A DNA stretch of 64,000 nucleotides from an uncultured Bacteroidota bacterium (GCA_963717445.1 OY970334.1:87219-151218); one strand, 5' to 3'; shown: positions 20,128-26,925, counted from the stretch's first letter. The notes: generated by a model from the sequence alone, not told the origin. Numbers and translations are program-made.

Positions 20128-20466
20128 ATGAAGAAAATTGAGGCTATTATTAGACCGCATAAGCTCGAGGAAGTCCGGGAAGCATTACACGACAATGGCG
20201 TCCACGGAATGACGATTTCGGAAGTTAAAGGAGTCGGCAGGCAGAAAGGTCATGCTGAAGTGTACCGCGGCTCAGAATATAAGATTGACTTCCTGCCTAA
20301 AATTAAAGTGGAGGTGGTTGTCAGCGATACGATGTTAGACGAGGTTGTTTCTCTCATTGTGAAAGCTTCAAAAACGGGAAGCGTGGGAGACGGGAAAGTT
20401 TTTGTAAGCCCTGTCGAAGAGGCAATACGTATTCGGACTGACGAGGTAGGGGAAGATGCGCTGTAA
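20128..20466 (+). CDS. glnB: Nitrogen regulatory protein PII (Ser49 T-loop variant)
   Basis: 112 aa; GRQKG, YRGSEY, FLPK, GDGKVF. Confidence 0.95.
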
Positions 20467-20535
20467 CAATAGCCGATGTGCGGTTGGAAAACACATGTAC
20501 GCACTATTTTTACTCACATGAAAAAGGGTGTAATA

Positions 20536-21633
20536 ATGAAAATGTCTTATCTTTTTTTGCCAGCTTTTGTATTGAGCGTAAGTACTGTCTATGCGGCGGA
20601 CTCCACCGCTACCCCGGCACCAACACCGATCACATGGAGCGGATTTGTCGATGCATATTACAGTAAAAATTTTAACAGTCCTGTAACCGAAACCAACCAG
20701 CTTAGAAATTTTGATATTGCTGAGAATCAATTCACTCTCAGTCTCGCCGAACTCGTTGTGCAGAAACAGGCTTCTCCCGTCGGGTTCCGAATGGATCTGG
20801 ATTTCGGACCGACAAACGACGTTGTTCAACCTGGCAATGGAAGCACCTTGAATGTTTTGCAGCAGGCATATCTTACCGCTGTTCTTCCTGTCGGTTCCGG
20901 GTTAACCGTTGATGTTGGAAAGTTTGTTACTCACATGGGCTATGAAGTTATTGAATCGAAAGATAACTGGAATTACAGCCGGTCGTTTCTTTTTGCCTAT
21001 GCAATTCCATATTACCACACGGGAATTCGACTGACCTATCCGGTTTCAAGCGCACTAAGCGCAACGGTGCATCTATTGAATGGCTGGAATTCTGCGATAG
21101 ACAACAATCACTCTCAAACGCTCGGGTTAACATTGAATTATACCGTCTCCCCCAGTACCAGCGTCATATTTAACGGGATCGACGGAGATGAACGGCCGTT
21201 TGGGGCGCCGTATGGAAAGAAAGCCGTTGCGGATTTTATTGTAACGCAGACCGTCAACGACAACCTCTCGCTCGCACTCAATGCGGACTATGGCCAGGAG
21301 CGCTTTTTAGGTTCGCCGGGTCCTTTGGCAATCTGGAAGGGCATTGCTATCTACGGAAGATATTCACTTAACGCTAAATCTGCCGTCGCTTTGCGAGGAG
21401 AGTTGTATTACGATCCATACGGATATACGACCGGAGTTGTGAGCCCGAAAACGACGTTAACGGAAATAACGGCGACCTACGAATATCATATTTTCGATGC
21501 GTTGATGGTCCGTGGTGAATTACGGGATGATTTTTCAAATACGCCGGGCGCTTTTAACACAGCCAGCGCCGCTCCATCGCTCTCGGCAAAATCACAGCCG
21601 ACGTTTCTCATCGGCGTTGTCGCGACGTTCTAA
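20536..21633 (+). CDS. Outer-membrane beta-barrel porin (bbp2/OmpL-like, often linked to amtB)
   Basis: Signal peptide, GKFVTHMGYEVIE..NWNYSRSFLF...PYYHTG, C-terminal Phe. Confidence 0.8.
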   Translation: MKMSYLFLPAFVLSVSTVYAADSTATPAPTPITWSGFVDAYYSKNFNSPVTETNQLRNFDIAENQFTLSLAELVVQKQASPVGFRMDLDFGPTNDVVQPGNGSTLNVLQQAYLTAVLPVGSGLTVDVGKFVTHMGYEVIESKDNWNYSRSFLFAYAIPYYHTGIRLTYPVSSALSATVHLLNGWNSAIDNNHSQTLGLTLNYTVSPSTSVIFNGIDGDERPFGAPYGKKAVADFIVTQTVNDNLSLALNADYGQERFLGSPGPLAIWKGIAIYGRYSLNAKSAVALRGELYYDPYGYTTGVVSPKTTLTEITATYEYHIFDALMVRGELRDDFSNTPGAFNTASAAPSLSAKSQPTFLIGVVATF

Positions 21634-21931
21634 TCCTTCGCGACCGAGCCTTACAGTTATGCAGATGGGTTTAGCGCTGGCAGCCGATAAAAAGTTTTTC
21701 AAATTCAGATAATTAATGAAGGAGGATTTCATGCTTATACCGTAAAGAGGCATTTGTGGATTAACACTACCGTTGCAGGTGTGCAACAAGTAGTGGTGAT
21801 TTCCGGCAAGCCTCTTTATGAACCGTCCCTGAGATCGTGCGCTTTCTGCTCGGTGTAGTGGAAAGACCTTTCGAAGGAAGCGGATTTTAAATCACATATA
21901 TCAAAACCAAACAAACTTCAAGAGGTGTGGC

Positions 21932-24449: not shown

Positions 24450-24478
24450 TTGCTTTTGAGATGAATCTTTAGTACACT
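24450..24478 (+). promoter_or_regulatory. Possible internal promoter for the kinase-GS unit
   Basis: TTGCTT-N17-TACACT in the ~200-bp gap. Confidence 0.45.
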
Positions 24479-24589
24479 TTCTCGCTCGCAGGCAAAAATG
24501 AGAGAATAATGGCTGAAAACCCTTGTTTATTCAAAGGGTGGCCGGTCAGGTCTGTTGTCCCTAGTCCCTTTAAACTTGCGAGAGCTACT

Positions 24590-25573
24590 ATGGCAAAAAC
24601 ATCGATGCTCCAAATTGGCGACCAGTTTGATCATTTTCAAATCCAAGGGCACATCGCTCAAGGCGGGATGAGCGATATCTATCGTGCATTTGATTTGTTA
24701 ACGAGCAAGGAAGTGGTACTCAAAATTCCCGACAGGATGTCAATCGGCGATCCAGCACAATACGAGCGATTCCAACGCGAGCTGGAGGTGATGCGGACTA
24801 TGCAGCATCCAGCGATCCTTAAGGGATTAGGGTCCGGACGTTTTAACAGTACGCCGTATCTTGTAACGGAGTTGATCGAGGGGGAATCAATGAGGACTCT
24901 TATCGGAAGAGCTGGCCCCTTGTCTCCAAGCGATTCGGTTTCGCTGATTCGAAAAATTGCAGACGGGATTGCTCATTGCCATGATAACCAAATTATCCAT
25001 CGTGACCTTAAACCGGAAAACATACTTATCGCAGCTGGGGGACAACCGGTAGTGCTCGATTTCGGCCTTGCACTGACGAAAAAATCTTTTCGCGTCACGT
25101 ATGCCAATCTCAGCAGCACTGCAGGAACGCCCGATTATATGGCTCCTGAGCAGATTGAAGGACAGCGAGGCGACGTACGCACTGATGTCTATGCGGTCGG
25201 AACAATGCTTTTCGAGCTCTTAACAGGAAGGACACCGTTCAGCGGTGATAGTAATCTCGCCGTCATGGCGCAACATCTCAGCGGCAATATTCCACGTTTG
25301 GATAAGATACAAACCGGTGTCTCTCCTCAATTAGCGGCTGTCGTTGCGCGTTGCCTTCAGCGTGATCCGAAGGATCGCTACAGCGATATGCATGCGCTGG
25401 TTCACGACCTCGATCATTTAGAGCAGGTTGATGTTTCAATTCTCGACCGAGTGACGACAGTTTCTCCCATGCGCGCCTTTTGGCGTTCGCCGATTGTCAA
25501 AGCTATCGGGTCAACGTTACTTTTGCTTGCAATCATAATTTTCTTGGCGTTTGTACTTAAATCTATACACTAA
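24590..25573 (+). CDS. Hanks-type Ser/Thr protein kinase with a C-terminal TM anchor and no extracytoplasmic domain
   Basis: AQGGMS, VVLK, RFQRE, HRDLKPEN, DFG, GTPDYMAPE; C-terminal hydrophobic helix. Confidence 0.93.
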   Translation: MAKTSMLQIGDQFDHFQIQGHIAQGGMSDIYRAFDLLTSKEVVLKIPDRMSIGDPAQYERFQRELEVMRTMQHPAILKGLGSGRFNSTPYLVTELIEGESMRTLIGRAGPLSPSDSVSLIRKIADGIAHCHDNQIIHRDLKPENILIAAGGQPVVLDFGLALTKKSFRVTYANLSSTAGTPDYMAPEQIEGQRGDVRTDVYAVGTMLFELLTGRTPFSGDSNLAVMAQHLSGNIPRLDKIQTGVSPQLAAVVARCLQRDPKDRYSDMHALVHDLDHLEQVDVSILDRVTTVSPMRAFWRSPIVKAIGSTLLLLAIIIFLAFVLKSIH

Positions 25574-26925
25574 TGCCTCTGTCTCCTTCAGATAATTCGC
25601 TCGATCGTGTATTGGCGCTCGCCAAAGAACGTGACGTCAAATTCGTTGATCTTCAATTTACCGACGTTGCTGGTTCGGTGAAAAATATCACCGTACCGAT
25701 TACCGAGCTTCCATCCGCACTTAACCACGGCATTTGGTTCGATGGCTCTTCGATAGAAGGGTTTGCCCGGATTGCCGAAAGCGACATGTACCTTATACCC
25801 GACCCATCGACGTTTGCAATCCTGCCATGGCTCGGGGGAAGTGAGACAACGGCGCGGCTTATTTGTAATGTGCACACACCCGATGGGAATCAATTTCTCG
25901 GGGATCCACGAGCGGTACTTTCACGCGTGCTTGACGAAGCGAATAAAATGGGATTCATCTATAACACCGGCCCCGAGCTAGAATTTTTTCTCTTGAAGCC
26001 CAACGCGGATGGCGGTGTGATACCCCCGCATCCGCAAGACAGCGCCAGCTATTTCGACCAGCCGACGGATATGGTTGCGACGGGATTATGGCGGCAGATG
26101 ACCGGCATGCTTTCCGCGTTTGGAATTGAAACAGAAGCAATGCATCACGAGGTTTCGACGGGCCAGCATGAAATAGATTTTCGTTATTCGCACGCTCTTA
26201 AAACCGCAGACAACGCGGTTTCATTTCGAGTGATTCTCAAAATCCTTGCGCAGCAAAAAGGTCTTTATGCAACCTTCATGCCGAAACCGATTCGTGGAAT
26301 CAACGGCAGCGGCATGCACGTACATCAGAGTTTGGGGTACAAAGCAAATGGTTCAAATGCATTCTCCGATACCGGTGATTCACACGGCCTGTCGAAAATT
26401 GCCAAACATTTTATGGCCGGCCAACTCGCACATGCTCGCGGAATGTGTGTGGTCTTAGCACCTCTGGTAAATTCCTATAAGCGTCTGGTGCGCGGATTCG
26501 AAGCTCCGGTGAACATCTGCTGGGGACGCATCAATCGTTCTGCTCTCATCCGAATTCCGCGCGCTCACACGCCGAGCTCGACGAGAATCGAATTGCGCTG
26601 TCCGGATCCCAGTTGCAACCCGTACCTGGCATTTGCCGTTATGCTCGCCGCAGGTCTCGACGGGATTCGTAAAGAATTGCCGATTCCCGAAGCCACCGAA
26701 GAAAACGTGTATTTGGAACCAACGTCGCAAAGCGGTACACCGTTCAGCGTTCTGCCGAGTTCGCTGGACGAAGCCATTTCAGAATTAGAAGAAGACACCG
26801 TGATACGAGAAGCGCTTGGAGCGCATGTGTACGAACGCTTCATCAGCGCCAAGCGATTGGAGTGGGAAGACTATCGCATCGAAGTAACTCCCTGGGAATT
26901 GGATAAATACCTTCCAATCTATTAA
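25573..26925 (+). CDS. glnA: Glutamine synthetase type I (GSI-alpha-like, 450 aa)
   Basis: [58 protein letters not shown] overlap with the kinase stop. Confidence 0.88.
   Translation: MPLSPSDNSLDRVLALAKERDVKFVDLQFTDVAGSVKNITVPITELPSALNHGIWFDGSSIEGFARIAESDMYLIPDPSTFAILPWLGGSETTARLICNVHTPDGNQFLGDPRAVLSRVLDEANKMGFIYNTGPELEFFLLKPNADGGVIPPHPQDSASYFDQPTDMVATGLWRQMTGMLSAFGIETEAMHHEVSTGQHEIDFRYSHALKTADNAVSFRVILKILAQQKGLYATFMPKPIRGINGSGMHVHQSLGYKANGSNAFSDTGDSHGLSKIAKHFMAGQLAHARGMCVVLAPLVNSYKRLVRGFEAPVNICWGRINRSALIRIPRAHTPSSTRIELRCPDPSCNPYLAFAVMLAAGLDGIRKELPIPEATEENVYLEPTSQSGTPFSVLPSSLDEAISELEEDTVIREALGAHVYERFISAKRLEWEDYRIEVTPWELDKYLPIY

Follow-up and report, generated by a model that had tools for sequence, protein, structure and literature searches.

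What is understood of how prokaryotes regulate nitrogen uptake post-translationally comes almost entirely from PII, GlnD and GlnE, and in the AmtB–GlnK pair it is a PII protein that plugs the nitrogen transporter. Among transporters controlled by kinases, NKCC1 and NCC, which have the APC fold, are acted on by SPAK/OSR1 at an N-terminal Thr, and AMT1 is acted on by CIPK23. Here, we analysed a stretch of DNA of 64,000 nt from an uncultured Bacteroidota bacterium (GCA_963717445.1 OY970334.1:87219-151218), hereafter the window, in whose coordinates positions are given. Within it, six genes, all on the + strand, encode a PII protein (PII_1), an outer-membrane BBP2 porin, an APC-superfamily permease, a PP2C phosphatase, a Hanks-type Ser/Thr kinase and a glutamine synthetase (GS; this copy, GS_a). 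The permease, PP2C and kinase genes form a conserved unit of three that accompanies nitrogen-assimilation genes from genome to genome, and this conserved linkage points to a so far undescribed switch that would control nitrogen uptake by phosphorylation. The cassette is a new wiring of known parts, and a widespread one.

The arrangement resembles AmtB–GlnK in that a dedicated post-translational regulator is encoded alongside a nitrogen-related membrane transporter, and a sister clade of the permease is itself fused to PII. It differs in that the regulator in the window is a Ser/Thr kinase with a PP2C rather than a PII protein, and the transporter has the APC rather than the Amt/Rh fold. Npr1 is reported to control ammonium and amino-acid permeases, Mep2 and Gap1. 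Together with SPAK/OSR1–NKCC1/NCC and CIPK23–AMT1, it offers a parallel in which a kinase switches a transporter via a cytoplasmic Ser/Thr, NKCC1/NCC sharing the fold of the permease; these systems, however, are eukaryotic, rely on unrelated kinases and involve long regulatory tails, whereas the N-terminal segment of the permease is shorter than 20 residues. In cyanobacteria, phosphorylated Ser49 of PII is dephosphorylated by the PP2C PphA, the kinase having long been elusive, with SpkB as a candidate (PMC4285133, PMC10651672). Ser/Thr phosphorylation and a PP2C thereby take part in nitrogen signalling there as well, and PII_1 of the window carries Ser49; however, PII proteins linked to the cassette do not conserve this residue, and the cyanobacterial genes are not described as a permease-linked operon in the passages cited. 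No cyanobacterial locus was present among the best 80 kinase homologues.

Hanks kinases have been connected with transporters and with glutamate/glutamine metabolism before. A review (PMC6213207) describes the mycobacterial kinases PknF and PknD as having the transporters Rv1747 and MmpL7 as substrates, PknG–GarA as an actinobacterial system in glutamate/glutamine metabolism, and PrkC as phosphorylating GlnA in Bacillus subtilis, where a GSI-alpha (type I-alpha) enzyme is thus a Hanks kinase substrate. Each differs from the present case. Rv1747 is an ABC transporter recognised via FHA domains, and the cassette lacks an FHA protein; PknG of the PknG–GarA–GlnH system is soluble, multi-domain and acts via GarA, whereas the cassette kinase is a bare kinase domain with a transmembrane (TM) tail. 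No FHA or solute-binding gene occurs among the six genes, GarA not having been sought elsewhere in the genome. PrkC carries PASTA domains, has many substrates and is not linked to glnA, whereas the cassette kinase is translationally coupled to GS_a. Full-text literature searches, mostly at abstract level, retrieved no description of a permease–PP2C–kinase(–GS) cassette or of an APC–PII fusion, in line with the original prediction, which knew of no characterised dedicated kinase/phosphatase pair lying between a permease and a GS.

In the window, the permease (21932..23458, +), the PP2C/PPM Ser/Thr phosphatase (23560..24393, +) and the kinase (24590..25573, +) are followed by GS_a (25573..26925, +). 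The original prediction had described six co-oriented genes with intact kinase and PP2C motifs and a TAATG overlap between kinase and GS_a, all of which we confirmed, and had interpreted them as a nitrogen phospho-module. Neighbourhood searches bore out the linkage of the kinase and PP2C to nitrogen genes across phyla. As regards the module itself, the dedicated kinase/PP2C pair within conserved nitrogen clusters stands, whereas GS_a and PII turned out not to be obligatory members and the APC permease did. Within the genus, kinase orthologues occur in 8/12 genomes, with one additional contig-end fragment, and another was found in a different family of the same order (G040); the order permease–PP2C–kinase–GS_a was kept in all nine same-genus or same-order loci fetched. 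Across a 401-genome sample of the window's phylum, orthologues of the kinase (E ≤ 1e-60) and of the permease (E ≤ 1e-40) were confined to exactly the same six genomes, and the block was again present in four further phylum-level loci.

A kinase-anchored scan (one genome per species, best 80 loci, neighbours identified by tblastn with the window proteins) extended this distribution. The loci comprised Ignavibacteria/Bacteroidota and Kryptoniota metagenome-assembled genomes at 63–83% kinase identity, Chloroflexota mostly at 57–70% with distant members at 39–46%, one Acidobacteriota at 64% and, at 38–46%, Dormibacterota, Armatimonadota, Methanoregula, Methanosarcinaceae, Methanoperedenaceae and Myxococcota. 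PP2C was upstream and co-oriented in 62/75 evaluable loci and the APC permease was upstream in 60/72, the corresponding figures for the Ignavibacteria/Bacteroidota/Kryptoniota group being 25/25 and 24/24. GS_a directly followed the kinase in 54 of 78 evaluable loci and was absent from this position in 24, while some PII, Amt or GS gene was present in 69/80. In one Methanoregula sp. locus (L100:4643-14363), PII–permease–PP2C–kinase lies directly upstream of nifH-nifI1-nifI2-nifD-nifK, that is, of nitrogenase genes rather than GS. In the record of Tengunoibacter tsumagoiensis Uno3 (L096), a culturable carrier, the permease and kinase genes are neighbours. The constant core is therefore permease–PP2C–kinase, with GS_a, Amt, PII and nif genes as variable neighbours.

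Anchoring the search on the permease gave a matching picture. A metagenome scan with the permease alignment yielded 80 loci, 11 of which had too little downstream sequence; in the 69 evaluable loci, the gene after the permease encoded PP2C (41), the kinase (6), PII (16), a GSI-beta-type GS (1) or an opposite-strand kinase (1), with no recognised gene in four. Where PP2C came next and more than 2.3 kb of downstream sequence was available, the kinase was present in 23/24 loci; with more than 3.8 kb, GS_a was present in 11/17. Among 301 Chloroflexota genomes, 33 contained the permease, 33 contained the kinase and 30 contained both; in 29 of these 30, one contig carried them at most 6 kb apart (the sample includes G658 and G469, flagged unpublished and carrying both genes; without them, the counts are 31, 31 and 28 of 299). 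Four of the six apparent exceptions are adjacent pairs that contig ends or thresholds had cut: a permease fragment lies next to PP2C–kinase in each of the three kinase-only genomes, and in one permease-only genome PP2C–kinase is cut by the contig end. The sole exceptions left, G436 and G449, encode the permease without the kinase/PP2C pair, and in G449 it sits among TPR and thioesterase genes rather than nitrogen genes.

By domain and motifs, the kinase (open reading frame (ORF) open from 24509; PF00069, 175 bits, cut-off 31.7) is a Hanks-type, eukaryotic-like Ser/Thr protein kinase. Its VVLK, RELE, HRDLKPEN, DFG and APE motifs are intact and invariant across 47 orthologues, the activation-loop residues T170 and T180 (trimmed numbering) are likewise invariant in the 47-row alignment, and the best solved relatives are the kinase domains of PknB, PknE and StkP. 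The protein consists of the kinase domain, a juxtamembrane linker of ~30 aa, one C-terminal TM helix and four further residues, without a sensor domain; the TM helix is kept in nearly all 80 homologues, archaeal ones included, and this sensor-less architecture is conserved across phyla. Assignment to the PASTA kinases (PknB/Stk1/PrkC) is precluded because NF033483 scored 266 bits against a cut-off of 450, with the match confined to the kinase domain, and only four residues follow the TM helix. In the PP2C (ORF open from 23518; PF00481, 64 bits; PF13672, 49 bits), the metal-binding motifs RxxNQD, DGMGG, GDSR, DG and DDN are intact, and D26, D49, G50, D128, D202, G203, D241 and N242 are invariant in 47 orthologues; against NF033484, the Stp1/IreP type, it scores below the curated cut-off (204 bits, cut-off 230). 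Pairwise identities co-vary over the 47 loci (kinase–PP2C, r = 0.95; kinase–permease, r = 0.77), the pattern to be expected if the block is passed on and transferred in one piece. Prediction of a permease–kinase complex from alignments A3 and A2, run without controls, gave a score of 0.25, the mark being 0.32. Outside the window, the same genome carries a tandem array (G000:C1:2521259-2536547) of at least five long kinase ORFs (568–907 aa) with 30–35% identity to the cassette kinase, and similar arrays occur in related genomes.

The permease (PF13520 AA_permease_2, 88 bits; PF00324 AA_permease, 67 bits) is a member of the APC superfamily (LeuT fold) according to Pfam, its 12 TM helices and its fold match. 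The helices were predicted by a hydropathy scan, and the positive-inside rule places both termini in the cytoplasm. Its AlphaFold2 model (pLDDT 83, pTM 0.86) matched GkApcT, AdiC and ApcT in Foldseek with probability 1.00 and TM-scores of 0.67–0.79, and also matched LAT1, KimA and cation-chloride cotransporters including NKCC1/NCC, phosphorylated-state structures of the latter being among the matches. No NCBIfam APC subfamily was matched at cut-off (best, TIGR00909, 74 bits against 557), the best sequence match in the PDB had E = 7e-4, and the public databases and the ESM Atlas returned only generic names and generic APC clusters, respectively. Judged by curated cut-offs, the permease thus appears to be uncharacterised and to lie outside the characterised APC subfamilies tested (BcaP, APA, urea-carboxylase permease and others). 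The family is large, with at least 7,999 database proteins at E ≤ 1e-10 among 8,000 candidates scored. Its solute is probably a nitrogen source, and the OmpL-like BBP2 porin (20476..21633, +; PF07642, 278 bits) precedes the permease in most Ignavibacteria-type loci.

A sister group of permeases provides a further line of evidence. Of the 16 permeases followed by PII, 15 are in fact single ORFs of 612–642 aa ending in a C-terminal P-II domain, each with one or two further PII genes after it (L171, L158, L165, L169, L172, L173, L178, L180, L181, L183, L184, L188, L190, L192 and L197); in L171 (5962-7869), Pfam assigns residues 57–510 to AA_permease and 515–629 to P-II. FastTree placed the 15 fused proteins in one clade (support 100) nested among kinase-linked permeases, and none is accompanied by the kinase. 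These loci resemble the amtB–glnK arrangement, with a transporter of APC fold. We infer that the same permease family is under the control of kinase and PP2C in some lineages and, in another, under that of PII in cis; that a clade fused to PII lacks the kinase speaks for the permease itself being what is regulated.

The kinase-linked permeases numbered 92 when columns were scanned and 94 in the final set. Among them, 95 columns were at least 97% conserved, and of these only Thr16 and Tyr83 were essentially lost in the PII-fused clade. Thr16, the candidate phospho-acceptor (codon 21977-21979 in the window), is Thr in all 93 kinase-linked permeases with a residue at this position, and nearby Thr12 is Thr or Ser in 92/92. 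In the 15 fused permeases, position 16 is occupied by Met (7), Leu (4), Phe, Val, Gly or Thr (1 each), and Tyr83 is kept in none. Thr16, at the first turn of TM1a, is part of a K-[KRP]-T-L-x-L-T-G motif; Tyr83 is situated in the TM2–TM3 loop, and both are predicted to be on the cytoplasmic face. In the G436 and G449 permeases, which branch separately from the fused clade, positions 16 and 12 are Ala and Val, and Tyr83 is retained.

Our preferred reading, which we advance tentatively and which may quite possibly hold, is that Thr16 and/or Thr12 in the permease N-terminus is phosphorylated by the tail-anchored kinase and dephosphorylated by the PP2C, GS_a or PII being possible further targets. 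The C-terminal TM helix would keep the sensor-less kinase at the cytoplasmic membrane face, beside the permease, where its target would be the short N-terminal stretch on the cytoplasmic side (motif K-[KRP]-T12-L-x-L-T16-G, at the beginning of TM1a), and the PP2C would take the phosphate off; uptake of a nitrogen-containing solute would in this way be switched by nitrogen status. In Ignavibacteria, the porin would give passage across the outer membrane and GS_a would assimilate the imported product, and in this lineage the translational coupling of GS_a to the kinase would ensure that uptake, switch and assimilation are made together. What we infer here is which protein is the substrate (the permease), which residue is modified (Thr16 or Thr12), which way the effect runs and what the signal is. 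More broadly, the cassette may perhaps represent an ancient, horizontally spreading prokaryotic phospho-switch, in which a sensor-less, tail-anchored kinase and a PP2C control a dedicated APC transporter at its N-terminal gate (Thr16/Thr12). The pair would do the job of PII for AmtB and of the fused PII in the sister clade, and in both bacteria and methanogenic archaea it would link uptake with GS_a or nitrogenase loci; we offer this wider proposal with reserve.

Several observations weigh against phosphorylation of the permease. The overlap of the kinase with the GS_a start in 13/14 close loci, and the presence of GS_a as the next gene in 54/78, fit GS_a as substrate equally well. The Thr16 pattern involves only two independent kinase-less lineages, too few transitions for an independent-pairs test, so that no statistical test of the pattern is possible, and the G436/G449 permeases sit on a long branch. 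Being in the first turn of TM1a, Thr16 could be a structural or substrate-related residue, and it becomes residue 8 if the permease starts at M9. At the six permease loci where the kinase comes next, no PP2C is recognisable in between, and distant kinase homologues (38–41% identity; Myxococcota and some Methanosarcinaceae) occur without the permease. Other kinase homologues without a permease are found beside a cupin and a hydrolase gene (L042), an Mrp antiporter (L071) or a transposase and a KdpD-like gene (L094); at 38–70% identity, these three cases suggest secondary rearrangement or non-orthology.

The closeness of GS_a to the kinase raises the alternative that GS_a is the main substrate. 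GS_a (450 aa; Gln-synt_C, 408 bits; Gln-synt_N, 111 bits) lies above the GlnA equivalog cut-off (TIGR00653, 499 bits against 429), and the solved structures that it matches best are GSI-alpha enzymes of archaea and Bacillus (8oow at 464 bits, 8tfb, 4lnf), which classifies it by sequence as a type I-alpha enzyme. No YDLPPEE-like stretch was found in the GS_a sequence, whereas GS_b, a type I (GSI-beta-type) GS of 477 aa encoded with an AsnC/Lrp-type regulator (32155..34095, +), contains a DIYDLSPEE stretch that resembles the adenylylation loop. A GlnD-like protein and GlnE are encoded in the genome as well, so the kinase/PP2C pair would add to classical control rather than replace it. Under the alternative, kinase and PP2C would switch a GSI-alpha enzyme that is without the adenylylation control of GSI-beta, and the permease would only supply substrate or signal. 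The presence of GlnE together with an adenylylation-type Tyr stretch in GS_b and not in GS_a is consistent with this, as are the gene overlap and the adjacency counted above. The GS_a clade (at least 77% identity) is, moreover, confined to cassette-bearing genomes among 41 relatives, six other genomes having a GSI-alpha at 54–57% identity without the kinase. In two loci, L025 (G145:C30) and L033, a GSI-beta-type GS gene with ~68% identity to GS_b is located between PP2C and kinase, such that GS genes flank the kinase. The phosphorylation of B. subtilis GlnA by PrkC provides a precedent (PMC6213207). Nevertheless, we consider GS_a unlikely to be the main substrate: it is not beside the kinase in 24/78 loci and is found in only 11 of the 17 permease-anchored loci with enough sequence, and the Methanoregula cassette continues into nifH-nifI1-nifI2-nifDK. 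A residue scan of 41 kinase-linked GS_a against six unlinked GSI-alpha sequences, too small a group for a firm comparison, gave 16 clade-specific columns and no convincing Ser/Thr acceptor.

A different role for the permease, which we likewise hold to be improbable, is that of a transceptor: it would sense its substrate and steer the kinase through the membrane, the kinase in turn targeting soluble GS_a, PII, nitrogenase regulators or a transcription factor. A kinase that lacks a sensor and conserves its TM tail and juxtamembrane motif, strict kinase/permease co-occurrence, and downstream nitrogen genes that vary (GS, Amt, nif) all accord with such an arrangement. It leaves unexplained, however, why Thr16 is invariant in kinase-linked permeases only, unless Thr16 is part of a docking surface, and the core is not accompanied by a conserved gene for a soluble target.

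PII_1 (20128..20466, +; PF00543 P-II, 113 bits) has the P-II domain and the Tyr51 T-loop that qualify it as a PII (GlnB/GlnK) protein, and it lies upstream of the porin in same-genus loci too. A cyanobacterium-like scheme, in which Ser49 of the T-loop would be phosphorylated and a PP2C resembling PphA would undo this, is suggested by its T-loop, YRGSEY (Ser49, Tyr51), as compared with YRGAEY (Ala49) in the Amt-adjacent PII_2, and by the removal of phosphate from PII Ser49 by PphA in cyanobacteria (PMC4285133, PMC10651672). We consider it very unlikely that PII_1 is the substrate, given that cassette-adjacent PII proteins variously have S, N, E, D or T at position 49, many cassettes have no adjacent PII, a GlnD-like protein is encoded and Tyr51 is present; the variability of residue 49 also weakened Ser49 of PII as a general target. 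Least credible of all is co-localisation without a specific functional link, that is, a general signalling pair hitch-hiking with a mobile nitrogen cassette: bacterial Hanks kinases commonly have many substrates (PMC10651672) and the patchy occurrence of the block suggests that it is transferred horizontally in its entirety, yet order and orientation are kept in at least six bacterial phyla and methanogens at 38–89% kinase identity, and genome-level co-occurrence is strict.

A transporter-dedicated Ser/Thr kinase and phosphatase, if the permease is indeed their target, would add a second, widespread logic to the control of nitrogen uptake and would constitute a prokaryotic counterpart of Npr1/Mep2 and SPAK/NKCC control. 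The cassette occurs in poorly studied soil and peat phyla, namely Ignavibacteria, Chloroflexota, Dormibacterota and Acidobacteriota, as well as in methanogens, and its permease defines an uncharacterised and abundant APC subfamily. It is also among the few cases in which the substrate of a bacterial Hanks kinase may be predicted from genomes alone, with residues named (Thr16, Thr12, Tyr83), and the PII-fused permease clade serves as a natural control for such a prediction.

Comparison with orthologues refined the gene starts. The PP2C most likely starts at M15 (23560), giving 277 aa, as two orthologues carry a stop within the upstream stretch; for the kinase, M28 or M33 (24590 or 24605) is the most likely start, and for the permease M9 (21956) is the probable one. 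The revised spacings are 9 nt for PII_1–porin, 298 for porin–permease, 101 for permease–PP2C, 196 for PP2C–kinase and −1 for kinase–GS_a, so more than one transcript is possible. At the last junction, the kinase stop TAA (25571-25573) and the GS_a ATG (25573-25575) share one A to form TAATG; of 14 related loci including the window, 12 have TAATG and one ATGA, and the fourteenth, without the overlap, has a frameshifted kinase. Two same-genus loci carry interrupted genes: the cassette kinase of L020 (G006:C7) is split by a frameshift near residue 205 (~10560-10580), and the permease match of L016 (G007:C5) shifts frame after residue 130 (~7564-7566), reflecting either decay or assembly errors.

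Upstream of PII_1, a consensus scan identified a promoter-like TTGACA-16-TATATT site (19885..19912, +; 11/12 matches) in a block kept in three same-genus loci. The leader of ~215 nt contains a 14-nt inverted repeat (19921-19934/19980-19993), and the region 19885-20127 includes blocks conserved in three same-genus genomes, GGAGATGCCTATGA among them. No Rfam family reached the gathering score anywhere in the window, the leader itself giving two chance-level matches (E about 0.4).

The nitrogen island extends downstream of GS_a with PII_2–Amt, two paralogous small membrane proteins, a CitMHS_2 transporter, the AsnC-type regulator and GS_b. PII_2 (PF00543, 120 bits) and the Amt ammonium transporter (27437..29407, +) have a TTGACA-16-TATATT site of their own (27326-27353). 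The small membrane proteins (29408-29815 and 31662-31991; ~110–135 aa) share the motif WA(V/A)MPG...QWI(V/I)SAGVVLGY and have no Pfam or NCBIfam match; the first begins 1 nt past the Amt stop, the second lies upstream of AsnC–GS_b, and homologues occur between GS_a and AsnC in relatives. The CitMHS_2-family transporter (29725-31209) is also found just 3' of GS_a in several Ignavibacteria-type loci (L034, L035, L037, L043, L048, L076 and L125) and might, speculatively, supply carbon skeletons.

Two further genes lie ahead of the cassette. A class-A beta-lactamase-family gene (16690-17580; PF13354, 179 bits) is located between ribD and the riboflavin synthase gene, a position kept in same-genus genomes at 72–77% identity. 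Directly upstream of rpe, a three-PASTA protein without a kinase domain (18229-18993) is conserved within the genus at 82–86% identity.

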